Shown one piece after another: positions 28,123 through 50,112 of a stretch of DNA of 64,000 bases (position 1 is the first letter of the stretch; each line of letters begins with the position of its first letter). This DNA comes from an uncultured Gammaproteobacteria bacterium (GTDB taxonomy: Bacteria > Patescibacteriota > Microgenomatia > Levybacterales > GWA1-39-11), in assembly GCA_964504535.1 (NCBI GenBank), contig CAZDED010000007.1, positions 12,353-76,352 on the forward strand, given 5' to 3'. The translations under genes were made by a program, and so were the position numbers. Below the pieces are notes generated by a model. That model ran no database searches, was not told where the DNA came from, and saw only the letters and a list, made by a program, of their open reading frames with translations.

Positions 28123-28591
28123 ATCTAACAGCAAACCTGACAGTAGGTGCATCTTCTCTAAATCATGGTTATCCGAGATAGCTATTTTTCACGGTCATTT
28201 TTTTACCTTTGCACATCAATATCTTAATTCGGTGCCTCATAGGTAATTTTAATTATATGTGGATTTATATCATTTGAGTACCGATAGATTCTCTAAAATC
28301 CAAACTTTCACCAATTTGTCGATTATACTATGCCCATAGGCTAAAACCCTCTTTTTTAAGCCTATCACTCAGGACTATCAAATGCTGAGATGCAAGTCAT
28401 TCGCACATAATTTTACCTGATATACTTTGATATACTCTATAGTTTTAACGGCAAAAAATACTATTTCCAAATATATCAAACGTTGCCTATTACCGCGTAT
28501 TAGAAATATTCTAGAAATTTGAGGTTAAATTTTTTTACCGCAGAAGATGATTCACCGTGAAATAAAGAGTATTCTTTCCTTTTAAAATGAT

Positions 28592-30274: not shown

Positions 30275-33200
30275 ATGGAATTACTAGAACTATTCAAAAG
30301 ACAATTAGCATCTACACCTAACACTTCTTCCAAGAATACGATCAAGAATTATGTCTCCGACGTGCGTCATTTTATCTCCTGGTTTGAGGCTGTTACAGCT
30401 TCAAAATTTGAAGCTAGTTCTATCACTCCTGATGTGATTCTTCTCTACCAAAACAGCATGGGAGGCCTCCTTTTGGATGGTCAATTACAAATCAACAGCC
30501 AACTTTCAGCGGCGTCCATGAAAAGACACTTATCCTCAATTCGTAAGTTTTTCACAGTGCTTGAGGGAGAAAATATACTCCGTGAAAACCCTTTTAAAAA
30601 AATTGTCACGGAAGAGACAGTAGAACCGACCGACTATTGGCACCTAAAGTCATTCAGGGATTATCTGATGATGGGAAAGGCATCAAAGATCACTGTCAAG
30701 AATTATCTATCAGACATTTCGGGCTTTGCACGTTGGTATGAAGAAGCGGTTCTTCCAACTGTAGAAAATCCGGTAAGTTCAAATCAGGGATTTTATCTTA
30801 TTACTCAAGCAATTGTTGAGGATTATAGAAAAAGACTTGTTGAAATCCAAAATGCTGCTCCTAGAACTATCAACAGAAAACTCTCAGCTCTAAGACGTTA
30901 TTTGGAATTTGCTACAAAAAAAGGTTTTATCACAAATCGGGAGATAAATATAAGCTCGGTTGAAGCTGAAATCGCTCAAGAGGTTCAGGATCTACCGAAA
31001 GTTCCCCTATCTGAAATATCCACACAACTAACTCCACAGAAGCGAATGTATTCAAAAATACCACCGGTTCGATTAGTTCAAAAACTATTTGTTAACCCCT
31101 ATCTTCTCCTCGAAGAAGGTGCTGCCAATGCAATAACTACCTTTCTCATCGGTAAAAAAGTGACAGGCATTGCAAATCTTCCTCAGAAATTATCTGCTCA
31201 AATTGTCGCTAAAAATGCTCTTAGGGTTCAAAATCAAGGATTAAGCACTCTTCTTAGCGTAAGAAATATAGAGAAAGAATTCTATGCCCCAGAAAAAATT
31301 TCTCTCTCAGGTCTTCCCATACACCAAAAACTGTTCCATCATGTCAGATTTAATAGACCTAATTGGTATAAAAGATATCATAACTATGCATTTGTTCATT
31401 ACATCCACTTCGCTCTCCTTGTTATTTTTGCATCAGGTGTAGGAGTTGCTTTATATCAAAATTTAGTTGTCCAAAAACAAACACCAACCTTTGCCGCCGC
31501 TACTGCTCCACCGAGAATTTTGTCTTTTCAGGGAAGACTTACCGATGCACTCGACAATCCAATTACCTCACCTCAACCAGTGAGGTTCATGATTTATAAC
31601 AGCCTTGCTGCAACTGGAGCTGCAGAGCTTTGGGAAGAGACAAGGACAATTTCTCCCGACCAGGATGGTATATTTTCTGTACTTTTGGGTAGCGACTCAA
31701 CTGGTGCTAACGCGTCATCCTGCGGATCATTCCCGCCAGGAAGTCCATATAATACTGCTTGTCTTATCCCTTCAACGGTATTTTCAGACAATAGCCAAAT
31801 TTGGCTTGGAGTTACTATTGCCAATAGCACTGAGCTTGCACCTCGTCAAAAAATAGCTACCGTCGGATACGCTAGCAATTCAGAATTCCTTCAAGGGTTA
31901 CCACCAACTTCAGCAGTCAGTAGCTTTGTAAATGCAGTTCTTGCACTTGACAGTACTGGAAGTTTTAACCTAAATGATGGAATTGAACATACATTTCAGG
32001 TAAGTAACGGCACCCTCACCCTAAAAGCTCAAACCCTAAATTTAACTACTAGTCTTGGTACAAATGGTAATATAATCTTGAATCCTGAGGGATCAGGTAA
32101 GGTCGACATTCAAAAACCTATTATCAACAATTCAAATACCGGCAATCTTGTGCCTGGTGGGGTTGAGATTAATGATAAGTTTGGAGTCCTTGCTACCGAA
32201 TCAGCAGTAGCTGCTTTTATAGTAAATAACAATACCACAGGTGGTGATATTTTTGCAGCCTCATCTTCAGGTACAACGAGATTCAAAATTGCAAATGATG
32301 GATCAATCACCTCAGGCTTTTATACCGGTCAAAATGCAGTGCTCTATGGCACTCAAACAACAGGAGTGATAGGTCAAGTAACTACCGCTTCAACGGGACT
32401 TTGCCTTCAATCCGGAGCTTCCCTCCCTACCTGGGGAACATGCGGAACCAGCTACTGGAATCTCACTACTGACAATGGTGCACTAACCCCATTCAGTAGC
32501 ACACTTGACTTGCTTATTGGCGGTCAATCAACAGCTTCTGCTAAATTTGCTTTCATCAATAATGCTTCAGGGTCACCTACCGCTTCGATATCTGGCAATT
32601 TATCAATTGCAGTGCCAACTGGAGCCAATGGGGCAAATCTTTTCAATATCTTTAACGGGGGAAGCCTTAACTTTCAAACCTCAGGAGGTGGTAACGCTGG
32701 CCTTACTTCCCGTCTCTTTATAGCAAATGACGGCAGAATCGGCATCGGAACTACGAGCCCATTTAGTAGAAATGCTTTAGATATCAGGGGATTAAGTGGA
32801 ACATCTTCAACAGCTTCTATCTCTGCTACTTCTTCATATGCAACTCTCGTTGTTGATAATGCAGGCAGTGGGGATCTTATAGCAGCGAGCGCCTCTGGAG
32901 TTCCCAACTTTGTAGTCAAAAATAATGGAGACATAATTGTTGGACCTGGTGGTGGAGGAAAAATTACGGCAGCTATCATTGACCCATATCTTATTCAAAA
33001 TCAAAAAACAACAGGAATCCAAAGCCTCACTTTCCAAACCCTAGGTGCTTCAAATGCTGATTTTGTCTTTCAGAATACAAGCACAACCCTCTCAACACTG
33101 ACAATGGCAGGTCAATTCCAATTGCCAATAACCGGATCTACTGGTGGAATTGTACTAGGTGGTGATACTCAATTATTTAGGGGGGCTGCTGACAGAATTG

Positions 33201-36200
33201 ACATTGCGGCAAATGACTCTCTTAACTTTCTTTCTGGATCTGGAGGATTACTAACTAATGGAACAACAAGGATAGATGCATCGGGTAATGGGACATTTGC
33301 AAATATTAATATTACTGGTACATGCACAGGATGTATAACTACTGGAAATTCTCCTTTCTATGTGTCAGAGGGTACGATTGTCCCAGGTAATACAACTGAA
33401 GACTTTATATTGGGAGGAACAGCATCAAGTAGTGCCCGATTTATTGTAAATGGCCTTGCAACAGGAATTGCACCAACTGCATCGATATCTGCTACTAATG
33501 GTAACGGAATATATCTTTCAGCACAAAATAGTACAGTCCAAACACTCAGGAATAACACACTGTCAATTGGAGGAAATACAACCGGTGCCGTAGCTATCAA
33601 TCCACTAGCCACAAATTTTACTGGTGTTGGCACCTCTAACCCGATGGCCTCGCTGGATATCAGAGGTTCGCTCGGCATTATTGGTGGAGGGACACTTGCA
33701 GTTGCTTCAATTTCTGGTAGAACATCATATGCAGCACTAGCTATAGACAACTTAAATACCGCAGGTGACCTGTTCACCGCTTCGTCTTCCTCGAATATGC
33801 AATTCGTGATCAAAAACAACGGATTTGTTGGCTTTGCAACAGCCGCCCCTACTGCCCGACTTGACGTCAATGGTTCGGCCTCAATTTCTAGTGCGCTAAC
33901 ATTTAGAACTGGCTCCGGAACTATTCAAACTTCAGCTAGCAATTCTCTTACTATAGGGGGCAATACAACTGGTTTTATAACAATCGATTCAGGCTCAGGA
34001 CTTGTGAATATTTTAGACAATACTAATATATCGGGTGCACTCACCGGCCTTACAGGGCTGACTCTAGCCAGTGGGGGCATAACATTAGGGGGAACAGTTG
34101 GTACAGGTACTCAATGTCTCCTTGGTGGTGCAACAGCCTCATGGGGCTCTTGTGGTAGCGGCGGAACCTCTCCCTTCCAATATACTACCTCGCCTACTGG
34201 TGCCATAATACCTATTAATTCTACCGTAGATTTTCTCATTGGTGGACAAGCAACCGAAAGTGCAAAATTTTCCATTCTCAATATAGCTGGAGGAACACCT
34301 ACGGCCTCAATTTCAGCTAATTCAGGTAATAATGCTGTCTATCTAACAGGAGATGGTACACTTGCAACAACAAATAGGCGTACGTTGACTATAGGCAATT
34401 CCTCAACATATGACACAACAGGAAATGTCCTGATCAACCCTAACGGAACAGGAAATGTTGGCATAGGCACAAATACATCAACTGTAAAACTAGAAATAGT
34501 TGATAATAATGGTACGGGAGGAATATTATTAAACGGACCCGTTAACGATACAGCCAACATTAGGTTTAGAAATACTAATCAGACTCCAAGCGATTTTAAT
34601 ATTGATTATGCAGGAGCAACTCTCAGATTTTTTACTGAAACAGGACTTGGCACTGGTGGAGTTTATAGAGGCGGGATTACGAATAATGGGCTCTTTGGAC
34701 TTGGAGTATCAGTACCGAGCTCCGAACTTCATGTATCGCGTCTTCTTACCCAACAAACCGCAACTGGTAAGGCCTTAGTACTATTTGATCAAAATGAAAA
34801 TCAAGATATTTTCACCGCTTCAGCATCAGGCACAACACGCTTTGTAATCCAGAACGATGGAGACGTTGGCATTGGAACCGATAGCCCACTAGCACCCCTT
34901 CATTTATCCGGATCTTCCCGTTCTATTTACCTGTCGGATGCTGGTCAATCCATAAGCTCCCAATGGTTCCTTTCTCCTGGTGCCAATAACTACCTTAATG
35001 GTACTGCTGCTGGCGATGGAGGAATAAAATTTCATTCAACTACTGGCTCCTTCGTAATAGGCCGAGATACAGGCAGTGTTGAATTTAAAATAACAAACAC
35101 TGGGAATCTAGGACTCGGAACGTACTATTCCCCCACAGGTGTTAATCCAACAGCAAAATTACAAGTATATTCTCTTGGCACCACCCCAGTAGCCTCAATT
35201 TCCGGTAAGACTTCTGGTCCTACTCTACTTCTATCAAATGATGGAACTGGTGATATTCTAGCTGCTTCAGTATCAGGAGTTCAAAAGTTCAGGATCAATG
35301 CTGCAGGAGATCTTATTGTTGGAGACGGATCAGGCAAGATATATGGTGGAGGATTTGATCCACTATTCACAATCGATGGCAAGAAATTCTCTACATACGC
35401 TTCTGGTATTAACGGTATGAAGGAAGAATATATCGGTAGTGCAAATCTTGCTTATGATGCAGCTGCTGGTGGGTACGCATATACTCTGGACTTCAACAAT
35501 TTTGAGTACGGCAGTGAATTGTGGACCTTCTCCCGTGTAATTGACCCTGATCTGACGAAAGTCAATGTCCTTCTCACCCCCACCTCACAGGCAAGGACAT
35601 GGTTCCGCCGTGACCCAGTCAACAGAAAACTCATACTTTATTCCGACCGCCCAACCAGTGTTACATTTAGGTTCACTGCTCCCCGCTTTGACTATGCTCT
35701 GTATCCATCTTCAAATCATTCCCATGATATTGCTGGTTTACAAGCACCAGTAGCACCAAACACTATCGGAACTGGCGAGGCTGATCCAATGGATTCTTTC
35801 CTTGCTTCCCTCTCAATTCAGTTCAATAATGGTCTATTTGTAGTATTGGATGGATTTGGCAACATGGTTCACCGGGTCGATGGATTCTCAAATCTCATCG
35901 CAGCAAATCTTGAAGCTGGTTTTATTCATACAAGAAATCTAGCAGCAGACACTTTGTCAGCTGGAAGTGCTTCACTTGGCAACGCAACCGCAAATACTTT
36001 TGCCGTTGCTGCAAATACAATCACAATTGGTGGAAAAGACATCAGACAATTTATCATAGATACTGTCACAGCAGCAGGATTTGGCCAAAATACAATCATT
36101 TCACCGTTAGCAGAAGTTGAAACGATAAAAACAAACACCATTCGTCCTCTAGCCGACGGTGGGGATATAACTGTAAAAGGAAAACTCATTACTGAGTCAG

Positions 36201-37177
36201 ATAAATCAGCTACTGATAGTGCTAGTATCTCACTTGACGTGAGAGGATCAGCTTCCATATCAGGCAATCTCACTGTAAACAATATACAAACCAATAATGC
36301 AACTCTTGCAGGATCTCTTACAACAACAAATGCCTCAATAAGTGGCACCCTTGCCGCAAGGGATATCAACGTTAATCAGCTTCAAATCCGTGATAATCTT
36401 AAGGTAGGCACTGTACGGGCAGATTTTGGAATATTTGAACAAGGAATAACCTCAATGGGGCCTGTAACTGCAAATATCTTAACCGCAACAGACCAATTAG
36501 CGGTAGGCAGCAACTTCACCATCTCAAATAATGCGATAAATACCGTAGGAACAGATCTTGCTATCCAGTCTTTGAGGCAAGGAGATATCGCATTTCAAGG
36601 TGGGCTTATCCGAATGGACACGGATGGCAATATGACAGTTAATGGTAATTTCAATCTTCTCGGGGAAATTGATGCAGTTCATGGAGTATTTAGCGGTACA
36701 CTCACTACCCCTGCCTTGGCAACCGACCTTATCTCACCGGTTGCGGATTCAAATATCTCCCTTTCATTCAAAGATTCTAAATTCAATATTCAGAATTCCA
36801 AAACTGCTACTGGAAGCGCTGTTCTTTCTATAGACAATAAAGGGAACATCCAGTCATCAGGATCTGCAACATTTGCAAAACTCAACTTCAATCTGGTTGG
36901 GAAGGCTGAGGCTACTAGCCTTACCGAAGCTGTTGCAACGGGAAGCGCTGGATTTGCTACGTTAAGAGCGGGACAACCAGAACTAACTATAAAGAACAGG
37001 ATCATCACACCAAAATCATTGATCTATATCACACCATTTGGAAATACTGACAACAAAGTCCTTTACCTGCTCCGTCAAATACCTGACTCTGACACCGAAG
37101 ATGGGTCATTTACAATAGGGATTTCTGGCCAAGTTCCAAATCATGATATACAATTTAACTGGTTGGTTGTGAATTAA
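30275..37177 (+). CDS. giant (2300 aa) membrane-anchored surface protein: two tandem integrase SAM-like N-terminal domains, one TM, tail-fibre-like repeat ectodomain
   Basis: Residues ~1-120 and ~135-235 each look like the XerC/D-type core-binding domain (KNYVSDVRHFISWF...SMKRHLSSIRKFF; VKNYLSDISGFARWY...INRKLSALRRYLEF). A TM helix follows (FVHYIHFALLVIFASGVGVALY). About 1900 aa of Gly/Thr/Ser-rich repeats carry recurring GIGTTSP..L.V-type motifs known from tail-fibre-like beta-helical proteins. Confidence 0.8.
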   Translation: MELLELFKRQLASTPNTSSKNTIKNYVSDVRHFISWFEAVTASKFEASSITPDVILLYQNSMGGLLLDGQLQINSQLSAASMKRHLSSIRKFFTVLEGENILRENPFKKIVTEETVEPTDYWHLKSFRDYLMMGKASKITVKNYLSDISGFARWYEEAVLPTVENPVSSNQGFYLITQAIVEDYRKRLVEIQNAAPRTINRKLSALRRYLEFATKKGFITNREINISSVEAEIAQEVQDLPKVPLSEISTQLTPQKRMYSKIPPVRLVQKLFVNPYLLLEEGAANAITTFLIGKKVTGIANLPQKLSAQIVAKNALRVQNQGLSTLLSVRNIEKEFYAPEKISLSGLPIHQKLFHHVRFNRPNWYKRYHNYAFVHYIHFALLVIFASGVGVALYQNLVVQKQTPTFAAATAPPRILSFQGRLTDALDNPITSPQPVRFMIYNSLAATGAAELWEETRTISPDQDGIFSVLLGSDSTGANASSCGSFPPGSPYNTACLIPSTVFSDNSQIWLGVTIANSTELAPRQKIATVGYASNSEFLQGLPPTSAVSSFVNAVLALDSTGSFNLNDGIEHTFQVSNGTLTLKAQTLNLTTSLGTNGNIILNPEGSGKVDIQKPIINNSNTGNLVPGGVEINDKFGVLATESAVAAFIVNNNTTGGDIFAASSSGTTRFKIANDGSITSGFYTGQNAVLYGTQTTGVIGQVTTASTGLCLQSGASLPTWGTCGTSYWNLTTDNGALTPFSSTLDLLIGGQSTASAKFAFINNASGSPTASISGNLSIAVPTGANGANLFNIFNGGSLNFQTSGGGNAGLTSRLFIANDGRIGIGTTSPFSRNALDIRGLSGTSSTASISATSSYATLVVDNAGSGDLIAASASGVPNFVVKNNGDIIVGPGGGGKITAAIIDPYLIQNQKTTGIQSLTFQTLGASNADFVFQNTSTTLSTLTMAGQFQLPITGSTGGIVLGGDTQLFRGAADRIDIAANDSLNFLSGSGGLLTNGTTRIDASGNGTFANINITGTCTGCITTGNSPFYVSEGTIVPGNTTEDFILGGTASSSARFIVNGLATGIAPTASISATNGNGIYLSAQNSTVQTLRNNTLSIGGNTTGAVAINPLATNFTGVGTSNPMASLDIRGSLGIIGGGTLAVASISGRTSYAALAIDNLNTAGDLFTASSSSNMQFVIKNNGFVGFATAAPTARLDVNGSASISSALTFRTGSGTIQTSASNSLTIGGNTTGFITIDSGSGLVNILDNTNISGALTGLTGLTLASGGITLGGTVGTGTQCLLGGATASWGSCGSGGTSPFQYTTSPTGAIIPINSTVDFLIGGQATESAKFSILNIAGGTPTASISANSGNNAVYLTGDGTLATTNRRTLTIGNSSTYDTTGNVLINPNGTGNVGIGTNTSTVKLEIVDNNGTGGILLNGPVNDTANIRFRNTNQTPSDFNIDYAGATLRFFTETGLGTGGVYRGGITNNGLFGLGVSVPSSELHVSRLLTQQTATGKALVLFDQNENQDIFTASASGTTRFVIQNDGDVGIGTDSPLAPLHLSGSSRSIYLSDAGQSISSQWFLSPGANNYLNGTAAGDGGIKFHSTTGSFVIGRDTGSVEFKITNTGNLGLGTYYSPTGVNPTAKLQVYSLGTTPVASISGKTSGPTLLLSNDGTGDILAASVSGVQKFRINAAGDLIVGDGSGKIYGGGFDPLFTIDGKKFSTYASGINGMKEEYIGSANLAYDAAAGGYAYTLDFNNFEYGSELWTFSRVIDPDLTKVNVLLTPTSQARTWFRRDPVNRKLILYSDRPTSVTFRFTAPRFDYALYPSSNHSHDIAGLQAPVAPNTIGTGEADPMDSFLASLSIQFNNGLFVVLDGFGNMVHRVDGFSNLIAANLEAGFIHTRNLAADTLSAGSASLGNATANTFAVAANTITIGGKDIRQFIIDTVTAAGFGQNTIISPLAEVETIKTNTIRPLADGGDITVKGKLITESDKSATDSASISLDVRGSASISGNLTVNNIQTNNATLAGSLTTTNASISGTLAARDINVNQLQIRDNLKVGTVRADFGIFEQGITSMGPVTANILTATDQLAVGSNFTISNNAINTVGTDLAIQSLRQGDIAFQGGLIRMDTDGNMTVNGNFNLLGEIDAVHGVFSGTLTTPALATDLISPVADSNISLSFKDSKFNIQNSKTATGSAVLSIDNKGNIQSSGSATFAKLNFNLVGKAEATSLTEAVATGSAGFATLRAGQPELTIKNRIITPKSLIYITPFGNTDNKVLYLLRQIPDSDTEDGSFTIGISGQVPNHDIQFNWLVVN

Positions 37178-37224: not shown

Positions 37225-37887
37225 ATGGACCCTAATCAATCTGCCAATTCTGTTCCTCCAAGGAAAGTACCACATCTACCCATATCAGAAGCTGAAAGTC
37301 ACCCGGAGATATATCAAGACGATCTTTCAAGTTCAAAGAATGCCCTTCTCACACTGGCTTCTTTACTAATTCTTGTCGGGATTATCGGAATTACTCTTTG
37401 GCTCTATATTCAGAATAAAACTGGAATTCAAGTTACATACCAATCAAAAAAAGAAGATACTAATAAAAGCTCTTCCAATATTCAAAAAAACCAAGCAACT
37501 TCTATTAACACCATGAGAAGTAAAGAGCTTATAAATAAGTATGGAACTGTTTGCAAAAGGTTTACAATACTTGAGGATGCCCTTAAAACTCCAGAAATCG
37601 TCTGTACGCTAGACTTATCAAATCAGGGTCTCAAAAGCCTAACAAAAGAGATTGGACAGTTCAAACAATTACATACCATAATATTGTCAAACAATAACTT
37701 GGAAATCTTTCCAAAAGAACTATACAGTTTATCTTCTTTAATAAGTATAGACTTCAGAAATAATCAACTAACAGAAAATCCGGATTTCAACAAATTTCCA
37801 AATCTTCAGTCTATAGAGCTTTCGGGAAATAAAATTTCTGAGAAAATTACAATTAAACGATTCCCTCCTCTAGTCATACAGTATTAA
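37225..37887 (+). CDS. leucine-rich-repeat protein with N-terminal TM
   Basis: 220 aa. One TM, then LRRs (LDLSNQGLKSL, LSNNNLEIFPKEL, DFRNNQLTENPD, LSGNKISEK). Confidence 0.55.
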   Translation: MDPNQSANSVPPRKVPHLPISEAESHPEIYQDDLSSSKNALLTLASLLILVGIIGITLWLYIQNKTGIQVTYQSKKEDTNKSSSNIQKNQATSINTMRSKELINKYGTVCKRFTILEDALKTPEIVCTLDLSNQGLKSLTKEIGQFKQLHTIILSNNNLEIFPKELYSLSSLISIDFRNNQLTENPDFNKFPNLQSIELSGNKISEKITIKRFPPLVIQY

Positions 37888-37926: not shown

Positions 37927-40728
37927 TTATCTACAAGATTGAGTCCAGAGGCCTTTGTACCCTGGAGTACACTGGTTACCTGTGCTATATACATCACCAC
38001 TTGAGCCATAAGTACCCCAATTACCACAGCATACTACATTTGCGTTATTTTGATCCCTACATGTATCGTCTGCTGCAACCCCAGCAGAGCTACATGCATC
38101 GATAGTTCCAGGATTACTAATACAAGGAACTTGTCCTCCTATTAACATGTAGCTATAGGAAAAGTTCACAAATGAAGAGTTACATACTAAATTACCTCCA
38201 CTTGCTGCTGGCATACCGTAAGTTAGCCCACCACTACAATCATAATCATAACTTCCATCTCCTCTATCTGTAGAAAAATATAAAGTTTGTCCTGGCTTTG
38301 CACTCGAATTAGAATCATAACAGTCATTTGTGCCAGTAACACTAGCTTTGTAATTTAAGGGGAGTACAAGACCAGAACAAACCTGCTGCGAACCAGATGG
38401 AGAATAGTTGTCATTATCAACATCTAAATATCCAGTGAGATTTTGCCATAAACTTCCACTATTACTATCACAATCTGTACCTGATGATCCGCTTACACCA
38501 GGTCGCAATGAAGCCCCAGAGCAAGCACCTGCTAGTGATGATGGATTAACCCCATCACCATCGTTATCTGGATACCCGGTTGAAAGATTCTGATAATATC
38601 CGCTTAGCGTATCATCACAGTCAGTATTATCTGCTGACCAGGCACCTGTGACCGGAGGAGTACACTGAGTTGTAGTTGATGGAGCAAGTCTCTTTATTTC
38701 AACCATTATTGATGCGTAGGTAGCAGATGAACTGAAGGTTGATGTCCTAGAGCTTGTTGCACCTGATCCAGTTCTCCACTCGGTAAATCCGGCAACACTA
38801 TCAATAGAAGTCACTCCTTTTCCATAAAGACTGCTCATGCCAGACGGAATAGTGTATATACCTCCATCTGTTGCAGTACCAACAGCCATTACTAGCATAT
38901 AATTTCCTGCTGTTGGGGTAATAGTAGAGCCAGTTTGGTTACTACTATTCCCCGTATTTGTGGCTACTGTACCGATAGGGCTTGCTGTTGCGACATTTCC
39001 AAAGGAAGTTAGAAACGCATGAGCATCAGATGAAGAACCAGTTACATTCACAGTATATGAGGCAGGTTCAGATCCATTCGCATATTTCCAGAACATTTGT
39101 ACTCCAACATTTGTACTGTTATTAGCTGTGCCAACAGAATTCCATGCAGCCCCCGCAGCAGTTATAGATACTGTTCTCCCAGTACCTCCTGTGTACTCTA
39201 TTGTCATGAGCATAAATGATCCACTCACAACATCTGCTGGCTTGGAAACTGTAAAGCTTGTACCGGCATTTACGGAACCGGATGTTGTCACACCTCTTGT
39301 AATTGTGCCAGAATTACCATGACCGTCGCCATCATTATCAGAATAGACTGTTGTATTGGAACAGGCTGCAGCTGTAGTTGCATATTGATTTGGTGTTGAA
39401 TAGGTCCCTGTTCCAGCTGCATTCTTTGCAGCCACTGCATACCCATAAACCGTACTTGGGTTTGCAGAAAAGGTGTGGCTATAAACTGATGTTACATTTG
39501 TAAGGGTAGCAGATGGACTACAGCTTCCACCTGTACACCACTTGAGATCAAAACCAGTACCAGCAGGTACTGCTCCACCAGTCTGTGTGCCGCTCCAGGT
39601 TATATCGTTTTGGGTTTGGGAAGAAGGATTGTTTACACTTACACTTGAGGGTGCACAGGGAGTCCCATTTGGATCATCCTGACAATCTGTCGCTCCTCCA
39701 CCTAACGCAGCACCTACCCCCATCCAGATATTAGTATTTGAAATTCCTTTAAAATAATTTCTACCACTAATAACGGATGGAGCACCTACACACTGGGTGG
39801 AAGCAGCTGATGAAGTTTTGTATCCATCGTTATCCACGTCAGTGACCATACCAAATAAATTCTGAAAGGTATATGCATTGTTTGGATTGCAGTCGAAGGT
39901 TGCAGACCCAGAAGACATTTTCCATGCGTAATTATAGTTTGAGTTGATAAGATTCCTTCTGACAAATTCGTTTGAGGCTGATGCAGTAGATAGCACATAC
40001 TGAGTTAAATCATCAATAAATCCATCAGCATCTTTATCATGAACAAAAACCCCACCTTTCTTTACTGAACCTCCGCGGGCAATAATAAGTGAAGAATTGG
40101 GTTTTTGTAAAATAAAACTCCCGAATGCCACCTGCTGAGAAGGTCCGACCGTCATTTGTGAACCTGGACTAAGGGTAAGCCCTGCAGTATTTGTTGTGCC
40201 TGATCCACTGTCTACTCCATTAAAATTTCCATTTAAATTACATGCTGCACCAACTGGAATTGTAAGCGCTCCAGTCGTTGGAGGGTCACAGGGACTTGCT
40301 GGACCATCTGACGTTGTGAATGTCACTGCTGAGGCTGCACCCGTTGTACCGCTCGCATTTATTGCGTATGCACAATACCAATACGGAGTATAGGGGTTAA
40401 GAAAGGTAGTAGAACTAGCTGGAATTGTAAATGTGAAATTGTGAGAGGTACTATCTGAACCCACAACTAAATCACTCCCCTGTGTCTGAGGATATCTGAT
40501 ACCACCGGTGTCGCTATTACAGTTTCCTGGGTTTGTTGAATAAACCCTGAAATGTCCGGTTGTGGCAAGAGCATTTGGATTGGCCGCTCCGTTAAGTGTT
40601 ACATAGTAAGAATTAACATTAGTCTGAGCACTAGTTGTGACCCCTGTAGGAGGAGCAGCATCAACTTTTGTACTAATAATCAAACCTAAAAATAGTATAA
40701 AAATTAAGCCTACGACTTTTTTGTTCAT
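37927..40728 (-). CDS. large secreted Gly/Thr/Ser-rich surface protein with Cys-rich DxDxDG metal-binding-like repeats (putative adhesin, downstream of pilin)
   Basis: 933 aa. Signal peptide MNKKVVGLIFILFLGLIISTKVDA. Repeated DNDGDG / DVDNDGY / DVDNDNY motifs are flanked by Cys. It is the last gene of the pilin operon. Confidence 0.65.
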   Translation of the reverse strand: MNKKVVGLIFILFLGLIISTKVDAAPPTGVTTSAQTNVNSYYVTLNGAANPNALATTGHFRVYSTNPGNCNSDTGGIRYPQTQGSDLVVGSDSTSHNFTFTIPASSTTFLNPYTPYWYCAYAINASGTTGAASAVTFTTSDGPASPCDPPTTGALTIPVGAACNLNGNFNGVDSGSGTTNTAGLTLSPGSQMTVGPSQQVAFGSFILQKPNSSLIIARGGSVKKGGVFVHDKDADGFIDDLTQYVLSTASASNEFVRRNLINSNYNYAWKMSSGSATFDCNPNNAYTFQNLFGMVTDVDNDGYKTSSAASTQCVGAPSVISGRNYFKGISNTNIWMGVGAALGGGATDCQDDPNGTPCAPSSVSVNNPSSQTQNDITWSGTQTGGAVPAGTGFDLKWCTGGSCSPSATLTNVTSVYSHTFSANPSTVYGYAVAAKNAAGTGTYSTPNQYATTAAACSNTTVYSDNDGDGHGNSGTITRGVTTSGSVNAGTSFTVSKPADVVSGSFMLMTIEYTGGTGRTVSITAAGAAWNSVGTANNSTNVGVQMFWKYANGSEPASYTVNVTGSSSDAHAFLTSFGNVATASPIGTVATNTGNSSNQTGSTITPTAGNYMLVMAVGTATDGGIYTIPSGMSSLYGKGVTSIDSVAGFTEWRTGSGATSSRTSTFSSSATYASIMVEIKRLAPSTTTQCTPPVTGAWSADNTDCDDTLSGYYQNLSTGYPDNDGDGVNPSSLAGACSGASLRPGVSGSSGTDCDSNSGSLWQNLTGYLDVDNDNYSPSGSQQVCSGLVLPLNYKASVTGTNDCYDSNSSAKPGQTLYFSTDRGDGSYDYDCSGGLTYGMPAASGGNLVCNSSFVNFSYSYMLIGGQVPCISNPGTIDACSSAGVAADDTCRDQNNANVVCCGNWGTYGSSGDVYSTGNQCTPGYKGLWTQSCR

Positions 40729-40737
40729 ATGTTTTAC

Positions 40738-41751
40738 CTATTGATTTGCACGAATTGAGCCTGTTTGCGTATTTCCCTGATCATCTGTTCCGACAATATC
40801 ATACCCATAATGGGTGTATGTATCGGTCACTTGCCATGTTCCGGTCCATGTTCCACTCTGGGCAGTTCCGCCAGTTCTTGAGAGTGTAAATTCACGGGCA
40901 TCTCCATCAGAATAAAGGATAGCCTTCATAGACGTTATGTTGCCTACAGTGTCATCAGCCAGTACCTGAATTGACTGTGCTAGCCCAATAGTCTGATATA
41001 ACGGCATGACTGTTACTTGATAGATGTCAGGATTTACGCCTGCATGGTTACCCAAATTATAAGTGACTGATCCTACTGGAGGAGTTGGTGTTGGAGTTGG
41101 CGTAGCAGATGGCAATGGCGTAGGTGTAGGCGTTGGACTTATAGACTCCACGCCTCCAGCGATAGAAGAAGCTGAAGCAAGAGCACTACAATTTACAGCA
41201 CCTGACAGGGTGCATGCCCATACCCCACTGGTATATCCGCTTGGAGTACAATCTGACAATGATGACAGAGGACATACATTGGTCAATGCAGAAGATTTAC
41301 TGACTTGAGAAAAAATTACATTCCATTGAGGACAAGAGGCAGTGGATTCTGTTCTATACTTATAGCATTCTCCAGTCCCACCATTACATTTTGGATCCTG
41401 AGGAACCTTCTTCATATATGTAGTGTCATTCACTTTCCACTCCTGGCCAAATGGGAGCTGAGCCGGATAACATTTTGTATCACTGTAGTAAAGATCAACT
41501 GCAGTTTTTATAGCCTGAAGGTCTGCTAGTCTTTGTGTATCTTGCCCTTTATTGATCTGAGCAATTGGATTTAAGGTCAGAAGCACTCCACCGATAAGAG
41601 TTGAGAGTATTGTTGCAGCTACCAATACCTCGACGAGAGTAAAACCAAATTTAGGAGATATGAGATGGGAGATGGAAGATGGGAATTCATTTTTTCCCAA
41701 ACTCCTAACTCCTAACTTCTTTTTGGTAATTAATTTTTGGGCAGTATTCAT
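40738..41751 (-). CDS. type IV pilin-like protein (prepilin N-terminal cleavage/methylation domain)
   Basis: The class III signal KFG|FTLVEVLVAATILSTLIGGVLL has the conserved Glu at +5. A Pro/Thr linker (TPTPTPLPSATPTPTPTPP) and a C-terminal globular domain follow. Confidence 0.7.
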   Translation of the reverse strand: MNTAQKLITKKKLGVRSLGKNEFPSSISHLISPKFGFTLVEVLVAATILSTLIGGVLLTLNPIAQINKGQDTQRLADLQAIKTAVDLYYSDTKCYPAQLPFGQEWKVNDTTYMKKVPQDPKCNGGTGECYKYRTESTASCPQWNVIFSQVSKSSALTNVCPLSSLSDCTPSGYTSGVWACTLSGAVNCSALASASSIAGGVESISPTPTPTPLPSATPTPTPTPPVGSVTYNLGNHAGVNPDIYQVTVMPLYQTIGLAQSIQVLADDTVGNITSMKAILYSDGDAREFTLSRTGGTAQSGTWTGTWQVTDTYTHYGYDIVGTDDQGNTQTGSIRANQ

Positions 41752-41753
41752 AT

Positions 41754-42278
41754 TTACTTTATTATTATGATTCCAGTCATTTCAGGTTTTGCTTTGTTCC
41801 TATATGTATAGGTACCCGGTGTATTAAATCTAACCTCTTTCATGTCAGAAGGTTCTATCGTACCGATATTTAAGATTTTACTATTTTCATCATTTCCCTC
41901 AATTGTTATCGCCTCTCCATCAATATTCAAAAACTCTATAAAACCTTTTTTTGGAATCGTTGCAATAGATGGATTAAATCTTCTTGAATTCACCATAACA
42001 GTCGTATTGACTATTGGTGGAATGGTTGGATAGGGAGTATGGGTTGTCATGTTGGTTGGTATTGTTGGTAAATTATTAGTACCTGTTTTTCCGGAATTCC
42101 CTTTCCCAAACAATACTATTATGGAAAGGATGAGAAAAACAATTATCCCAGCGACCAATATACCCATGATTACTTTCTCATTTTTATTCATAGTCCTTTT
42201 TATTTCATCAGAAAGAAATCCCTCTTGTGATTGGTTTGATTGAGGATGTGCTTTATGTTCATGTCTTCTCTTCAACAT
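41754..42278 (-). CDS. membrane-anchored cupredoxin-like domain protein (no obvious Cu ligands)
   Basis: 174 aa. One TM, then a beta-sandwich resembling plastocyanin/amicyanin topology (GFIEFLNIDGEAITIEG...NTPGTYTYRNKAKPEMTGIIII) but lacking the His/Cys/Met ligands. Confidence 0.45.
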   Translation of the reverse strand: MLKRRHEHKAHPQSNQSQEGFLSDEIKRTMNKNEKVIMGILVAGIIVFLILSIIVLFGKGNSGKTGTNNLPTIPTNMTTHTPYPTIPPIVNTTVMVNSRRFNPSIATIPKKGFIEFLNIDGEAITIEGNDENSKILNIGTIEPSDMKEVRFNTPGTYTYRNKAKPEMTGIIIIK

Positions 42279-42659
42279 ATATAAATTCTATACAGAAAAA
42301 ATCCTTTTCAGGCTTGTATGCCTATTTAGTATAGGTACGTTTTTTTTCCCTTGTCAAGCCCCTCAAATTGGGGCGCAGTGCAGGCATCTTTTGATGCGGG
42401 GTGCAAGCACATATTTTGTTCAAAATGTTAGTATTTAACCACTTACAAACTGTGTACATATACTCATATTTACATATAACTATATCTTTTAGTACTTCTT
42501 CCTAACAGAATTGTTGTGCATAATCACCTACCTATATATGGGATGCAAAACTGTAGTAGTTTGAATTCTTGACATCCAAATCACTACTTTGCTAATGTGG
42601 AGTATACCCTAATTTCTTTTTTCAGCTTTTTTTCAGAAAAAGCATAGTACGCTAAATAT

Positions 42660-44828
42660 ATGAGTAAATCTGTCTTATCACTTTTATCATCAGTTGCCAC
42701 GATTATTACAGCAACAATATTTCTCTTGTTCCCTCTATTCTTTCTTACCATAACTACTGACTTCTTTACATTCCCAAAGCAAATACTAATAGTCATCGGC
42801 TCACTTTTGCTCTTGGTTCTTTGGGGGATTAAAGTAGTTGTTGAAAAAAGAATTACTTTTCTTCTCAACCCACTCAATTTACCAATCCTTCTTTTTGGGC
42901 TGGTTCTTATTCTTTCGAACTTCTTTTCGCTTTCATCTCAAGATGCAGTCATTCAATCAGTTCCAGTTATTCTTCTTTGCGTACTTTTCGTCACGACAGT
43001 CAATTTTATTAGCGAAAAGTCATCTTTTACAATAGTTGTCACATCTCTTATTATAGGAAGTGCTCTTTCTACCCTACTTAGCATCTTTGCTTACTTTAAT
43101 ATTTATCTTCTCCCCTTTGAGGCTATCAAAAATCCTAGTTTTAATACACATGGTTCACCTATCCAGTATGCAGCCTATTTGATCCCACTTCTTATATTAT
43201 GTGCTGCTTCTCTCCTGGATATCGTTAAAAAAGGAAAGATGAAGTCAATTACAAAAGACTACTCATATATCTTGCAGTTAGTTTCTGCTGTTATTTTTGC
43301 GATTGGTCTTGGAATAGTAATCTTCCAAATAGCTACAGCACCTCAAAAACCAATTCTTTTACCCTTCAATCACGGGTTTCAGGTAGCATTTGCAACTATC
43401 AGTCAAGATGTTCCCCAAAGACTAGCCCAGTCGTTACTTCTTGGAAGCGGATATGGAACGTTCTCTACCGACTTCACAAGGTATGTATCCCCAGCTTTCA
43501 ATACTCTTCCCTTCTGGAATCTGACTTTTGCTTTCTCTTCCTCTTATGTTCTGGAACTATTGGCAACTACTGGTATATTAGGACTTTTCACCTTCGCCTT
43601 CATATTCCTGAATTTCTTAAGAAGCAAAGCTGCACCATCAAATCCGCTATTCCTTGCGACACTTGCGGTCTTTATCATGACACTGCTTGTACCATTTTCG
43701 TATTCATTAGTCTTTCTTCTTTTTGCTCTTTTAAGCTTATTCGTCTGCTATAGAGCAATTGCAAAAGCGAAAGGTTTTGATAGTATAGTTATCAATTTAG
43801 TGGCTTTGCGCCAAGGGCTTATCTCTGTCACTGAAGAAGGAACAAAAAAGAATAAAGAGAATCTGGTTTTGCCTACTGTTGTTTTAGCTATTTCAATACT
43901 TATTTCTGTTTTTGTGCTTTTCTACCTGACTGGAACGGGGTCAACACCAAGAAAAGGATATCTGTCACTTATTAGCTCTGATATTAAATTTGCAAAATCA
44001 TTCTCACAAGAAGCTTTAAGGTCTGGTACTCAAACATACAACCTGGAGACACAAGCCATTTCAGAATATCCTTACCGGAGTGACTACTATAGACTTTTCT
44101 CACAAATCAATCTTGCTCTTGCAGCTAACATAGTGACTGCCCAACAAGGCAGAAAACCATCAGAAGAAGTACAAAACAACATAATTGCCCTTCTTCAACA
44201 AAGCATAAATAGCGCCCGTCAAGCTGTTACCCTCTCACCTCTTTCATCGGTCAATTGGCAAAATCTAGGCCAAATTTACAGAAATCTCATCGGGGTTGGT
44301 CAAAATGCAGAACAATTCGCTGTGGCCTCATACAATCAAGCATCAACCCTAAATCCATCAAACCCTGGTCTTAGAATCGAACTTGGAGGTATTTACTATC
44401 AATTGAAGCAATGGGATTTGGCCCAAAATCAGTTCAATATTGCGCAGCAATTAAAGAACGACTATCCAAATGCATACTACAATCTAGGTCATGTGTATGA
44501 GGAGAAAGGTGATCTCCAAAATGCTCTAGCTCAATACAAGATGGTTGCTCAACTCGTTGCCAATGATAAGCCTAATTTGGATAAAATAAATACCGAAATA
44601 AAAGCACTTGAGGACAAAATTGGAGCTGCAGAGGCTCAAAACACAGAGGCAAAACAACCCACAACAGATACTACCCCACTTGGAGTAGACAAACCTCAAA
44701 CGGAATTTCCTCCAAAAGATCCTAAAGAAACAATTCCGGCTCCTCCAAAAGGTGTTGTGACTCCAAAACCAACAGCTACTGTGTCACCAACCCCTACGGT
44801 TGAGGCATCTCCAACCCCAGTTAACTAA
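42660..44828 (+). CDS. O-antigen-ligase-like (Wzy_C/PglL-type) polytopic membrane protein with C-terminal TPR repeats and Pro/Thr tail
   Basis: 722 aa. About 12 TM segments N-terminally, then TPR units (AYYNLGHVYEEKGDLQNALAQY) and a TPKPTATVSPTPTVEASPTP tail. The architecture is common in O-antigen-ligase-family proteins of CPR and Firmicutes. Confidence 0.5.
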   Translation: MSKSVLSLLSSVATIITATIFLLFPLFFLTITTDFFTFPKQILIVIGSLLLLVLWGIKVVVEKRITFLLNPLNLPILLFGLVLILSNFFSLSSQDAVIQSVPVILLCVLFVTTVNFISEKSSFTIVVTSLIIGSALSTLLSIFAYFNIYLLPFEAIKNPSFNTHGSPIQYAAYLIPLLILCAASLLDIVKKGKMKSITKDYSYILQLVSAVIFAIGLGIVIFQIATAPQKPILLPFNHGFQVAFATISQDVPQRLAQSLLLGSGYGTFSTDFTRYVSPAFNTLPFWNLTFAFSSSYVLELLATTGILGLFTFAFIFLNFLRSKAAPSNPLFLATLAVFIMTLLVPFSYSLVFLLFALLSLFVCYRAIAKAKGFDSIVINLVALRQGLISVTEEGTKKNKENLVLPTVVLAISILISVFVLFYLTGTGSTPRKGYLSLISSDIKFAKSFSQEALRSGTQTYNLETQAISEYPYRSDYYRLFSQINLALAANIVTAQQGRKPSEEVQNNIIALLQQSINSARQAVTLSPLSSVNWQNLGQIYRNLIGVGQNAEQFAVASYNQASTLNPSNPGLRIELGGIYYQLKQWDLAQNQFNIAQQLKNDYPNAYYNLGHVYEEKGDLQNALAQYKMVAQLVANDKPNLDKINTEIKALEDKIGAAEAQNTEAKQPTTDTTPLGVDKPQTEFPPKDPKETIPAPPKGVVTPKPTATVSPTPTVEASPTPVN

Positions 44829-45093: not shown

Positions 45094-46269
45094 TTAATGA
45101 AGGAAGCTTAATGGGTCGTAGAAAGTTCCACCACTTCTCACCTCAAAATGAAGATGTGCACCTGTTGTTCTACCTGTTAGACCTACCCATCCTACTACGG
45201 TTGAACCAGCAACAACGCTTTGACCGGAACTAACATTCAACCCACTCATGTGCGCATATAAGGTTTGGTAACCGTTATTACCTGTCACAATAACATGTGT
45301 TCCATAACCATAATTCCAACCGCCAGCAACTGCATAACTGACAGTACCACTTGAAGCCGCAACAATCGGTGTTCCAATTGGAGCACCGATATCAATTCCT
45401 TGATGATACCAACTATAGTATTGATTCATCGTTCCTTGTATTGGCCATGTAAATCCAGCTCCCGATACGGAAACCGATCCTGAAGGTATAAAAGTACGCC
45501 GCGCTATATAAGTTGGAGCAGACTTTGGTGGGACCCCTTCGGGTACGATTAGGGTTTGACCTATGACAAGTGAAAAGGTCTGTGGGTCTGCAAAGTCGTT
45601 GAATGGGAAGTCGACTATAGCCTGAGCATTTGAACTATACTTCTTGGCTATAGTGTAAATAGTGTCTCCTGAAGTAACTTTATGCGCTACTCCACTCACA
45701 GGCAATATCTGCAATGTATCTCCTACTGTTATATCATCATCAGTTAGATCATTCTGCCAACGTACTGTATCCTCAGATACTGAAAATTTCTTTGCTATAC
45801 CAGACAATGTGTCACCCTTTTGAACAGTATAAGTAATAATTTCTGAGCGTGGTTTATCAGAAAGCTGAGTATGAAAGACGTCTTGAGGGGCAAGACTCTG
45901 CTTTTGCTCAGAGATGTCTTGCGCAAATGAAAGAAGGTTCTTGTCTTTAGAGAAAGGATTTTGGTCTGTTATAAATGGTGAGATAAGAACTCCGAAAGAA
46001 AGTACTGCCATAGCTGCTACATGGAGAAAAAATCTATTGCGCTTTCCACGCTTTATCAAAATTGACTTGACGACTGTATTCTTGTTCTTCTCAAAAATAT
46101 TTGAGAAGAACATCACTTTGTCTTTGGTATAAGTCGAAAGGAATAAAAGAAAACTTCCAAACTCGCTTTTGAGGCCAGAAAGTGCTTTTACAGCATTTTT
46201 GAAGAACGAGGGTTTTTTTGCTCCTGTATGAACTTTGCCCAATGAGGGGGCCATCTTGTGACGATTCAT
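45094..46269 (-). CDS. LysM-domain M23 family metallopeptidase
   Basis: 391 aa. Two LysM repeats (YTVQKGDTLSGIAKKF; HKVTSGDTIYTIAKKY) and M23 motifs HQGIDIGAP and GTHVIV...YAHMS. Confidence 0.8.
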   Translation of the reverse strand: MNRHKMAPSLGKVHTGAKKPSFFKNAVKALSGLKSEFGSFLLFLSTYTKDKVMFFSNIFEKNKNTVVKSILIKRGKRNRFFLHVAAMAVLSFGVLISPFITDQNPFSKDKNLLSFAQDISEQKQSLAPQDVFHTQLSDKPRSEIITYTVQKGDTLSGIAKKFSVSEDTVRWQNDLTDDDITVGDTLQILPVSGVAHKVTSGDTIYTIAKKYSSNAQAIVDFPFNDFADPQTFSLVIGQTLIVPEGVPPKSAPTYIARRTFIPSGSVSVSGAGFTWPIQGTMNQYYSWYHQGIDIGAPIGTPIVAASSGTVSYAVAGGWNYGYGTHVIVTGNNGYQTLYAHMSGLNVSSGQSVVAGSTVVGWVGLTGRTTGAHLHFEVRSGGTFYDPLSFLH

Positions 46270-48513: not shown

Positions 48514-48938
48514 GCGTATACTCGTTAGGCTTGAGGTTAGAGAAGGCAGCTTTCATAAATTCTCCCCCAAATTTCCAAAAGCTCTCTTCCCTGATCTTGA
48601 AGATTAGGAAAGTAGTATGAAGCAGACTATCCAATAGCTGGATAACTTTGCTTATAAGTACCACTTTGTTCTTTGACAATTGGTATACAGAAAAATTATT
48701 TCGGTTGACACTTTGGTGTCGGATTGAGCGTTCCGTTGGCATGAAAGCTGCACAACGGGCCGCTCAACCCGGCACTGTAAGTTACAACCGGAAAAACAAC
48801 ACTAAGGAGAAGAACATATTGGAGGCTCGATCTCCGCCCACCATTCCCCAACCGCAAGGCTGGGTCAAAAGAATGTAAGCGGTATCGTCCGCCTACATTC
48901 TTCCACTAAGTCAGAGTTCAGTTCCGGAGGAAAACACC

Positions 48939-49949
48939 TTGTCCAAGACTTGGATCGCTATCACCTCCATCGTTCTGACGATGGCCGTGATGATCGGTGG
49001 AGGCTGGGTTATCGCCCACCTTCCTAGCACGTCCGCCAACGCGGACGGCCCCGACGGAAGCCCCACGGCTTCCGCCACCGCGACCGTCACTGCGACGGCC
49101 ACCCAGACGCCCACTCCGGGCACCGACAAGAAGGACCAGCCGCCGGTGCCAAGCGCCGTCTGCCGGCTCGACAAGGTGGGCACATTCGCCGAGGTATCCT
49201 CGGCTGGCCCACAACGCATCGAAGTTGGCGGGGGGGGAACCCAGCACGTTGACTTCTATCCTGACCGCGGTGTCCCATCCGTTTCCTACATCGTAGGACC
49301 CGGTAAGGTCATAGTGGCACATGGATTTGGGAGCATCTGGGAGGGCAACCTTCCGGACTGTGCTCAGTTCAAATGGGTCGCCGATGCGACCGAATACGCT
49401 CTCGGCAACGTGGGCAACAATCGGCCGGACCGGCTTACGAAAGGTCACAGCGGCATCGTCATCGACATGAGGAGCAATCCTCCTGAAATCGTTGCGAACG
49501 CTCTCGGCCTCAACACGGCGCAGATCGTAAATCTGCTCGCAAAGCACGTGAAGGGAATGGAACTCACCGATAGCCAGAAGCAAATGCTGATGACTATCCG
49601 GATGGCCGCCGGCGTCACAACGCCTGCCGCCGGATCCAATACTGCTACGTGCAGCGAAGGTACCCGCGCCGACCACAAGCCGGCCAAGGATACCGCGTGG
49701 GACATTACGCCTACAGACTCCTTCCGCGTGGTCAACGTCTGGTCCAACCAGCGTGACCCCAACCTGGGAGACCACAAGCTCCTTCTCAAGCCTGGTGAGA
49801 GCGCAAGCCTCATGGGCGGCGGCGGTGCCGCCTGGTCCTTCCCGGCAAGCTGTGGCGACGCTGCCCAGGCCGCCTATGAGGCCAATACGAACCCGGCCAT
49901 AAGCCTGGCTCAGTACAAGGCCTACGTCGAAAAGGGCACCATGCCCTAG
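48939..49949 (+). CDS. hypothetical membrane-anchored protein in high-GC island 4 (N-terminal TM, Thr/Pro/Ala linker, C-terminal domain)
   Basis: 336 aa with strongly GC-rich codons (about 65% GC region). The strand was chosen because it gives TM, linker and globular domain; the antisense ORF looks like noise. Confidence 0.4.
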   Translation: MSKTWIAITSIVLTMAVMIGGGWVIAHLPSTSANADGPDGSPTASATATVTATATQTPTPGTDKKDQPPVPSAVCRLDKVGTFAEVSSAGPQRIEVGGGGTQHVDFYPDRGVPSVSYIVGPGKVIVAHGFGSIWEGNLPDCAQFKWVADATEYALGNVGNNRPDRLTKGHSGIVIDMRSNPPEIVANALGLNTAQIVNLLAKHVKGMELTDSQKQMLMTIRMAAGVTTPAAGSNTATCSEGTRADHKPAKDTAWDITPTDSFRVVNVWSNQRDPNLGDHKLLLKPGESASLMGGGGAAWSFPASCGDAAQAAYEANTNPAISLAQYKAYVEKGTMP

Positions 49950-50112
49950 ACATGAGTACCTCTGTATACCAAGCTCGGGATGCCCCCTACTGGGGGGCAT
50001 CCCGGCACAAGAGGGGAGGCGCTAACACCGCCTTCGAAGAACAAACCGGGCTTGCCCGGCAGAATGCTTCGGAGTCGATTGCCTCCCCCCTTTCCCCCTG
50101 TACATAAATATT

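Follow-up and report, generated by a model that had tools for sequence, protein, structure and literature searches.

Here, we describe a pilin cassette and its neighbor in a 64,000-nucleotide (nt) stretch of contig CAZDED010000007.1 from a Levybacteria-type genome (positions 12,353 to 76,352; hereafter, the window), where three genes, for a cupredoxin-like protein, a prepilin and a large secreted protein, stand next to a divergently oriented gene encoding a 722-amino-acid (aa) protein with transmembrane (TM) helices and tetratricopeptide repeats (TPR), denoted the TM-TPR protein. The reading that we put forward, tentatively and at a little less than even confidence, is that these are two units lying side by side and not a dedicated pair, namely a variable pilin/adhesin cassette and a core TM-TPR gene of the O-antigen-ligase superfamily. 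Among related genomes, the TM-TPR gene is usually paired with the gene of a giant surface protein, not with pilins, and the dedicated pilin-glycosylation module proposed in the first-pass annotation of this DNA is therefore not supported. The locus is well characterized, and the function that sequence comparison suggests for the TM-TPR protein is unproven. The features of the locus are listed below (ORF, open reading frame; LRR, leucine-rich repeat; P/T, Pro/Thr).

30275..37177, plus strand: giant surface protein, 2300 aa (PF02899, E 1e-14)
37225..37887, plus strand: LRR protein, 220 aa, membrane-anchored, travels with the cassette (LRR_4, E 5e-10)
37927..40728, minus strand: cassette gene 3 (variable), 933-aa secreted Cys/Asp-rich protein (ORF list, motif counts)
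40738..41751, minus strand: prepilin, 337 aa, GspG/PulG type (ORF list, PF07963, TIGR01710)
41754..42278, minus strand: cassette gene 1, cupredoxin-like protein, 174 aa, membrane-anchored, with a P/T-rich linker and a predicted beta-sandwich (ORF list, Pfam)
42328..42357, minus strand: promoter-like site TTGACA-18-TATACT, 11/12 matches, ~50 nt upstream of cassette gene 1
42660..44828, plus strand: TM-TPR protein, 722 aa, divergent from the cassette (ORF list, Pfam, topology)
43242..43634, plus strand: putative Wzy_C-equivalent core of the TM-TPR protein, residues ~195-325
43959..44639, plus strand: predicted extracytoplasmic TPR domain of the TM-TPR protein (TPR_11, E 5e-11; TPR fold matches; positive-inside topology)
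45094..46269, minus strand: LysM and M23 peptidase, downstream of the TM-TPR gene (PF01551, E 6.5e-27; LysM, E 6.5e-21)

For the comparative analysis, loci were taken from 53 species-representatives, mostly Levybacteria, and supplemented with loci from contig look-ups, and genes were called on all of them; counts made from the TM-TPR side refer to the 43 loci with at least 3 kb of upstream sequence. A co-directional giant surface protein gene lies within three genes upstream of the TM-TPR gene in 32 of these 43 loci and is its immediate neighbor in 22 loci, with a median gap of 101 nt; the pilin cassette is found at the TM-TPR gene in 5. These upstream genes encode homologs of the giant protein of the window (30275-37177), which has one TM helix, a pair of Phage_int_SAM domains at its N-terminus and a very large external region rich in Ser, Thr, Gly and Asn. 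Downstream, nearly all loci retain genes for a LysM-M23 peptidase, Rho and a DUF11 protein, and the TM-TPR gene is a core gene with conserved synteny to these three. The M23 gene (36 loci) is convergent with the TM-TPR gene in 28 and co-directional in 8 (gaps of 47-170 nt), so that the arrangement reflects synteny, not an operon, and the peptidase was rejected as an operon partner of the TM-TPR gene. Its orientation flips between lineages, as between the window and loci L001-L004, and its place between the TM-TPR and Rho genes is kept.

Viewed from the cassette side, all 11 of the 11 full-length pilin homologs with readable context belong to cassettes within ~2 kb of a TM-TPR gene, such that the conserved adjacency considered in the first-pass annotation holds from this side but fails from the TM-TPR side (5/43). 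These cassettes, in the window, contig P0010 and loci L001, L002, L005, L006, L015, L028, L059, L060 and L062, range from 94% down to 37% pilin identity, and each has a cupredoxin-like gene and a variable large protein; the L006 cassette is at a contig end, where the cupredoxin-like gene alone is visible. On the TM-TPR tree, the cassette loci fall at no fewer than four separate positions, and the identities of the pilin and the TM-TPR protein co-diverge (94/94, 63/58, 47/49, 46/42 and 40/40%, respectively). The cassette lies between the giant and TM-TPR genes in the window and L059, and unrelated small genes sometimes intervene between the cassette and the TM-TPR gene (L028, L060 and L062). 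Vertical inheritance in a region of strong synteny would account equally well for the location of all 11 cassettes at the TM-TPR locus, and in the simplest reading, the cassette is a variable island, passed on vertically and frequently lost, in a syntenic block that is otherwise rigid.

Within the window, the three minus-strand cassette genes are separated by intergenic gaps of 2 and 9 nt and therefore form an operon-like unit, in agreement with the pilin operon of the first-pass annotation; all three ORFs were confirmed, with the 933-aa gene (37927-40728) lying outside the start of the interval given there. That annotation was also correct in naming the 722-aa gene (42660-44828, plus strand) as the immediate divergent neighbor of the cassette. 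The spacer between the two measures 381 bp, and a tRNA remnant, a terminator or a structured RNA within it was considered and rejected, given that tRNA, terminator and Rfam scans of the spacer were empty and its folding z-score was -1.6. The promoter-like site is suggestive at most because such sites do not exceed the chance number in the region.

The TM-TPR protein contains 11 predicted TM helices (residues 1-424) with a big external loop at residues 227-295; residues ~434-660 form the external TPR domain, and residues 661-722 a tail rich in P/T. The odd-numbered (cytoplasmic) loops carry 13 Lys and Arg residues vs 4 in the even-numbered (external) loops, a positive-inside distribution by which the 227-295 loop, the tail and the TPR domain all lie outside the cell. 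Pfam and NCBIfam report TPRs only, at residues ~520-640 (PF13414, TPR_11, and other TPR families). The 120 closest homologs all come from Patescibacteria, the named ones being Woesebacteria and Levybacteria, and PF04932 (Wzy_C) was found in none of them. A family profile of the membrane domain collected 3,542 cluster representatives, 1,512 of them at E<=1e-10, mostly 650-750 aa in length; searched against the sequences in the PDB, this profile produced no match at E<=10. PF04932 was found in 18 of 60 distant family members (22-33% identity), two of which, P0195 and P0260, score 46.6 and 36.9 bits, respectively (gathering threshold 31.7), over model positions 2-149 of 149, and are recovered by the family profile at E 6.8e-37 and E 5.3e-30. 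In both proteins, the match spans residues ~205-384, equivalent in the window TM-TPR protein to the stretch from TM7 through the large loop to TM8.

The membrane domain was modeled with AlphaFold (pLDDT 76, pTM 0.81) and compared with the PDB using Foldseek on this domain alone because the search with the full-length model was swamped by TPR matches. The only meaningful match is the O-antigen ligase WaaL (7tpg_B; probability 0.98, TM-score 0.39/0.42), all others scoring ~0.14. Jointly, the PF04932 matches of the distant members and the WaaL fold match identify the TM-TPR protein, as far as profiles and a predicted structure can tell, as a remote member of the O-antigen-ligase (Wzy_C/GT-C_B) superfamily, which is classed as GT-C_B along with RodA (PMC12800693). 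The family, which extends over thousands of CPR (Candidate Phyla Radiation) lineages, is annotated today just as 'TPR repeat protein' and is uniformly mis-annotated. A pilus TPR protein of the PilF/PilW/TadD type was considered for the window protein and rejected, given that its resemblance to such proteins is of a generic TPR kind, scoring far below the cut-offs, and that the protein has 11 TM helices. In L012 (~7596-9888), two TM-TPR paralogs (710 and 707 aa) stand in tandem, suggesting occasional duplication within the family.

Conserved functional residues of the Wzy_C motif are R215, R288 and H338 in WaaL, equivalent to R224, R298 and H349 in PglL (PMC3643930), and the H324A variant of PglS serves as a dead control (PMC12800693). 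The corresponding core of the TM-TPR protein consists of TM7, an external loop with GSGYGTF, N281, W286 and S293-S294-S295, and then TM8. The authentic WaaL motif, H-x-HN-[DE]-I-[IV]-EA-x-S-x-x-G-x-x-G, compares with S-S-S-Y-V-L-E-L-L-A-T-T-G-I-L-G in the window, with the Glu and both Gly residues in the WaaL register. Ser294 falls opposite the catalytic His in the alignment of the family Hidden Markov Model (HMM) with 7tpg (8.9 bits) and in the WaaL-profile hhalign comparison (probability <1%), both of which are weak. Among 250 family members, this column holds Ser in 216 and His in 4, and P0195, the strongest Wzy_C match, is among the members retaining His. In the weak 7tpg alignment, the Arg of 'R-x-x-x-W' falls at F236 of the window protein, in a column of F/Y/L, and no Arg is conserved around G165, at the positions aligned to WaaL R288 or in the vicinity expected for R215; R254 is confined to the subfamily of the window protein, and position 274 is R or K in 202/250 members. 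The near-invariant polar residues of the family are K40 (236/239), D/E34 (219/239), N281 (247/250) and W286 (248/250); G262, G264 and G305 are invariant, and the SS[SN] motif is shared. The loop with conserved Arg and His that would be expected of such an enzyme is thus not present in canonical form and, with the His missing and apparently no conserved Arg at the WaaL positions, any activity would use different chemistry or be absent.

Several observations weigh against the reading of a core ligase-superfamily gene beside an independent cassette. PF04932 was not detected in the TM-TPR protein itself, either in the full-length protein at E<=0.01 or in the N-terminal 494 aa at E<=10, so that the first-pass label 'Wzy_C-like/TPR' stands for the TPRs and for remote superfamily kinship but not for a direct Wzy_C match, and the domain expected within 42660-44828 failed to appear even at the loosest cut-off. 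PF15864 (PglL_A) matched neither the TM-TPR protein nor its relatives in any Pfam scan, and hhalign comparisons of the family with E. coli WaaL alone and with an 18-sequence enterobacterial WaaL profile were not significant. The apparent replacement of the catalytic His, along with the seeming lack of a conserved Arg at the WaaL positions, points in the same direction. At least four phylogenetically separate cassettes at exactly the TM-TPR locus could indicate a functional tie between the two units. Finally, gene order is what suggests the giant protein as an acceptor, and the genes for glycan assembly (initiating transferase, flippase) are not adjacent, the nearest candidates, a family 2 glycosyltransferase (GT2) and a 1141-aa protein, being 5.5 kb off.

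The cassette pilin is a genuine prepilin, as the first-pass annotation had stated from its G↓FTLVE signal. It scores above the cut-offs of both N_methyl PF07963 (E 6e-6, 26 bits; cut-off 21.2) and TIGR02532 (19.7; cut-off 16.3) and matches the GspG-like TIGR01710 at E 1e-7, below its cut-off. The cleavage region reads KFG↓FTLVEVLVAATIL, and the class III signal, KFG↓FTLVEVLVAATILSTLIGGVLL, shows Gly at -1, a hydrophobic residue at +1, Glu at +5 and a hydrophobic helix. In the 337-aa protein, a 35-aa leader and the G↓FTLVE site are followed by a globular domain (8 Cys), the Pro/Thr linker and, at the C-terminus, a beta domain of ~110 aa. The linker, also noted in the first-pass annotation, occupies residues ~206-226 (PTPTPTPLPSATPTPTPTPP) and is kept in 56 of 69 full-length homologs; the homologs bear PF07963, PF08334 (T2SSG) and PF22434.

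The 933-aa protein of cassette gene 3 has a Sec-type signal peptide, 5 DxDxD[G/N] motifs, 4 xDCxD motifs, 26 Cys and a faint fn3 match, in accord with the DxDxDG-bearing, Cys-rich protein described at first. Its counterparts in other cassettes contain F5_F8_type_C, fn3, LVIVD or LamG domains. The early guess that this protein is a pilus-associated adhesin holds up: the gene is co-inherited with the pilin, and in L002 (1908-7484), an 1858-aa protein joins a prepilin N-terminus (GFTLIE) similar to that of the 337-aa pilin to three segments resembling the 933-aa protein, plus Laminin_G_3, a Rosetta-stone link between the two. Judged from these sequence relationships, the 933-aa protein is a probable adhesin.

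The 174-aa protein of cassette gene 1 combines an N-terminal TM anchor with a P/T-rich linker. Its match to Cupredoxin_1 (PF13473; E 0.004, 17.6 bits) is below the cut-off of 27, but its L060 homolog has a proper Cupredoxin_1 match, which suggests similarity to cupredoxins at the level of the fold only. The protein contains zero Cys and therefore lacks a type-1 copper site; of the original description as cupredoxin-like, the fold remains and the copper ligand does not. Homologs occur in L001, L005, L006, L028, L059, L060 and L062 (29-80% identity). LRR genes flank the cassette in contig P0010, L001 and L062.

If the cassette and the TM-TPR gene are separate units, the following picture would emerge. 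The cassette would run from its own promoter region through the cupredoxin-like protein, the prepilin and the variable secreted protein, with the LRR gene alongside, and most likely represents an adhesin module presented on, or together with, a type IV pilus (T4P) or a pseudopilus. Genes for the ATPase of assembly, the platform protein and the prepilin peptidase would lie elsewhere in the genome; PilB, PilC, PilD and PilM were all absent from the 64-kb window. The presence of the cassette would vary between lineages, as an island between the giant and TM-TPR genes subject to vertical inheritance and repeated loss. The TM-TPR protein, for its part, would be the product of a core envelope gene of Levybacteria-like CPR bacteria, with its big loop and TPR domain outside the cell, and would most likely act on a lipid-linked glycan at the external face of the membrane, transferring it to an acceptor at the surface that its TPR domain holds. 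For this acceptor, the giant surface protein encoded directly upstream in most genomes is the best-supported candidate, and P/T-rich surface proteins, such as the pilin, may be additional substrates, as for general O-oligosaccharyltransferases (O-OTases).

CPR bacteria live attached to other cells, an attachment ascribed to their giant surface proteins and pili. The present analysis ties a large CPR family to the O-antigen-ligase/O-OTase superfamily, with the canonical catalytic His apparently replaced, and identifies its usual genomic partner, the giant surface protein. If active, the TM-TPR family would be a new catalytic variant of lipid-linked glycan transferases; if inactive, it would be a case of an enzyme fold recruited as a scaffold.

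Other roles of the TM-TPR protein have to be weighed. One is the polymerization or ligation of a cell-wall glycopolymer in the manner of Wzy or WaaL, in which case the acceptor would be a carbohydrate or a lipid and the surrounding genes would make up an envelope-biogenesis neighborhood; we regard this as rather unlikely. PF04932 includes polymerases and ligases with non-protein acceptors, a protein that has lost the ligase His could carry out another reaction, and the downstream genes include a GT2 and a large membrane protein, the L001 counterpart of which has a 'faint' GT-C_AftD match. The LysM-M23 peptidoglycan hydrolase conserved in 36 loci also fits such a neighborhood but, being mostly convergent, has no operon link to the TM-TPR gene. 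Moreover, a TPR domain points to a partner that is a protein, the gene linked most tightly and most often is that of the giant protein, and Wzx/Wzz-type genes are absent nearby. A protein acceptor is envisaged in the proposal that the His-less Wzy_C/TPR family is a CPR surface-protein glycan transferase with another catalytic set (K40, D/E34, N281, SS[SN]) that decorates the giant protein and any cassette. We consider this proposal unlikely; if true, the TM-TPR protein would be the first defined CPR protein-glycosylation enzyme and a mechanistic variant of the O-OTases.

Alternatively, the TM-TPR protein might no longer be an enzyme but a scaffold with a ligase fold, the TPR domain of which aids the anchoring, export or assembly of the giant protein and/or pili. 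The canonical His and, apparently, the Arg residues too are lost across the family, yet the very strong polar conservation of the external loops (K40, N281, W286, the invariant Gly residues, SS[SN]) resembles that of a site for catalysis or ligand binding. Assembly interactions are a common role of TPR domains, and a weak similarity to PilW/Tgl/TadD-type proteins exists (one JGI name is 'TadD'), but these similarities are generic and far below the family cut-offs. Even with the tight co-directional pairing with the giant gene in its favor, we find a scaffold distinctly improbable.

Two further loci, L061 and L063, match the N-terminal half of the pilin alone and lie within canonical T4P loci, with T2SSE, T2SSF, Peptidase_A24, PilM and five or six small pilins. 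In both, a glycosyltransferase of the GT-C fold, of the TMEM260_N/PMT_2 type, is encoded between the first pilin gene and PilD (2029-5249 in L061, 3169-5180 in L063), and L061 additionally contains a Mannosyl_trans2-like gene. This enzyme of the T4P operons is a better-placed candidate for pilin O-glycosylation and is brought forward here as such. Pilin glycosylation in Patescibacteria has so far merely been predicted (PMC11623550), and among the papers searched, none was found connecting CPR, O-antigen ligases and pili, or TMEM260/DUF2723 and pilins. The proposal of the first-pass annotation, by which the TM-TPR protein is a TfpO/PglL-like O-OTase dedicated to the Pro/Thr linker of the adjoining pilin, is very unlikely to be correct: its remote Wzy_C-superfamily membership, an external TPR domain as in PglL (PMC2943079), the adjacency of 21 of 31 pglL homologs to pilin genes (PMC3643930), the proximity of all 11 full-length pilin homologs to TM-TPR genes and the conserved linker speak for it, but the cassette is present at just 5/43 TM-TPR loci, the gene is a core gene syntenic with M23, Rho and DUF11, it is divergent from the cassette and at times separated from it by unrelated small genes, the catalytic His is apparently Ser, neither PF04932 nor PF15864 matches, canonical T4P loci of relatives have their own GT-C, and the co-divergence of the pilin and the TM-TPR protein fits simple vertical inheritance.

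Other parts of the window were also inspected. The giant gene closes a co-directional cluster ahead of the TM-TPR gene (26564-37177) that is conserved in most Levybacteria and encodes a polytopic membrane protein of 206 aa, two secreted proteins of 267 and 330 aa, the latter with a TM anchor at its C-terminus and a faint WxLIP_PGBD match (E 0.027), and the 2300-aa giant. The same order (~200, 234 and 315 aa, then the giant) is seen in L003, L011, L014, L020, L021, L046-L048 and others, and the cluster resembles a dedicated surface-complex locus. At 50349-54654, the GT2 gene (PF00535, E 6e-36) overlaps by 8 nt with the start of the gene for the 1141-aa protein, which has no Pfam match; the gene pair is syntenic in relatives and resembles a lipid-sugar synthase accompanied by a large membrane glycosyltransferase. 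The slot between the DUF11 and GT2 genes, which varies among relatives, holds in the window a sharp compositional island of ~1.4 kb (48700-50100) with 55-70% GC, vs ~37% GC in the genome. It contains long ORFs overlapping on both strands (336 aa, plus; 360 aa, minus), the former resembling a membrane-anchored protein with a Thr/Ala/Pro-rich linker, and produced no Pfam or Rfam match; the island may have been acquired horizontally from an organism of high GC content or may be a chimera of the assembly. At 19950-22015, ComEC is seemingly split into two adjoining minus-strand ORFs, one of 405 aa with the Competence domain and one of 283 aa with the metallo-beta-lactamase domain, which constitute the sole DNA-uptake-related gene pair within the window. 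Many metagenome-assembled genome records with a clearly Levybacteria-type locus (L005-L057) are titled 'uncultured Gammaproteobacteria bacterium', apparently a placeholder or a mislabel.

Among known systems, the cassette pilin is similar to type IV minor pilins and type II secretion pseudopilins in its prepilin signal and GspG-like N-terminal domain (GspG/PulG fold), and the cassette as a whole to pilins with adhesin partners, such as PilY1-/PilX-like tip adhesins, in the co-encoded large secreted protein with lectin or adhesion domains and in the L002 fusion. In Saccharibacteria, large minor pilins have been proposed as adhesins (PMC11623550). Unlike minor-pilin systems, the cassette is located away from the pilus machinery and adds cupredoxin-like and LRR proteins, and cassette gene 3 carries a Sec signal instead of a prepilin signal.

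For the TM-TPR protein, WaaL (PDB 7TPG/7TPJ), with its GT-C_B fold shared with RodA, is the closest structure (Foldseek probability 0.98), and E299, G305 and G308 align with its Glu, Gly and Gly. However, the TM-score is just ~0.4, the hhalign comparison is not significant, the TM helices number 11 vs 12, the TPR domain is an addition, the catalytic His and Arg appear not to be conserved, and these organisms have no lipid A-core acceptor. With PglL, TfpO (PilO) and PglS, it shares a polytopic architecture, a large external loop between late TM helices, an extracytoplasmic C-terminal domain, a GxGxGxF motif, a '..N..L..L...G..G' motif entering the next TM helix and, in some genomes, an adjoining pilin gene. 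It differs from them in having no PF04932 or PglL_A match, in Ser for His (H349 in PglL, H324 in PglS) and, in a weak alignment, in the lack of conserved Arg at the positions of WaaL R215 and R288; furthermore, the gene is divergent, whereas tfpO/pglL are usually co-oriented with the pilin gene (PMC3643930), and it is a core gene, mostly without a pilin neighbor, in a monoderm-like CPR bacterium.

Both PglL and WsfB, an O-OTase acting on the S-layer of Paenibacillus alvei, are reported to combine a Wzy_C-type membrane domain with TPR, and in Geobacillus, the S-layer gene adjoins its glycosylation cluster (PMC2943079). The TM-TPR locus lacks a surrounding slg-type cluster (no rml, wzm/wzt or initiating transferase), and the protein lacks the His. 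By architecture, nevertheless, the TM-TPR protein is similar to WsfB and to WsaB and WsaA of Geobacillus, with a Wzy_C-type domain, a C-terminal TPR domain and a host without an outer membrane, and in those systems, the gene can be located close to that of the surface protein served (PMC2943079), as the TM-TPR gene is to the giant gene. By this analogy, the pairing of the giant and TM-TPR genes resembles the arrangement of S-layer O-OTases more closely than that of pilA and tfpO.

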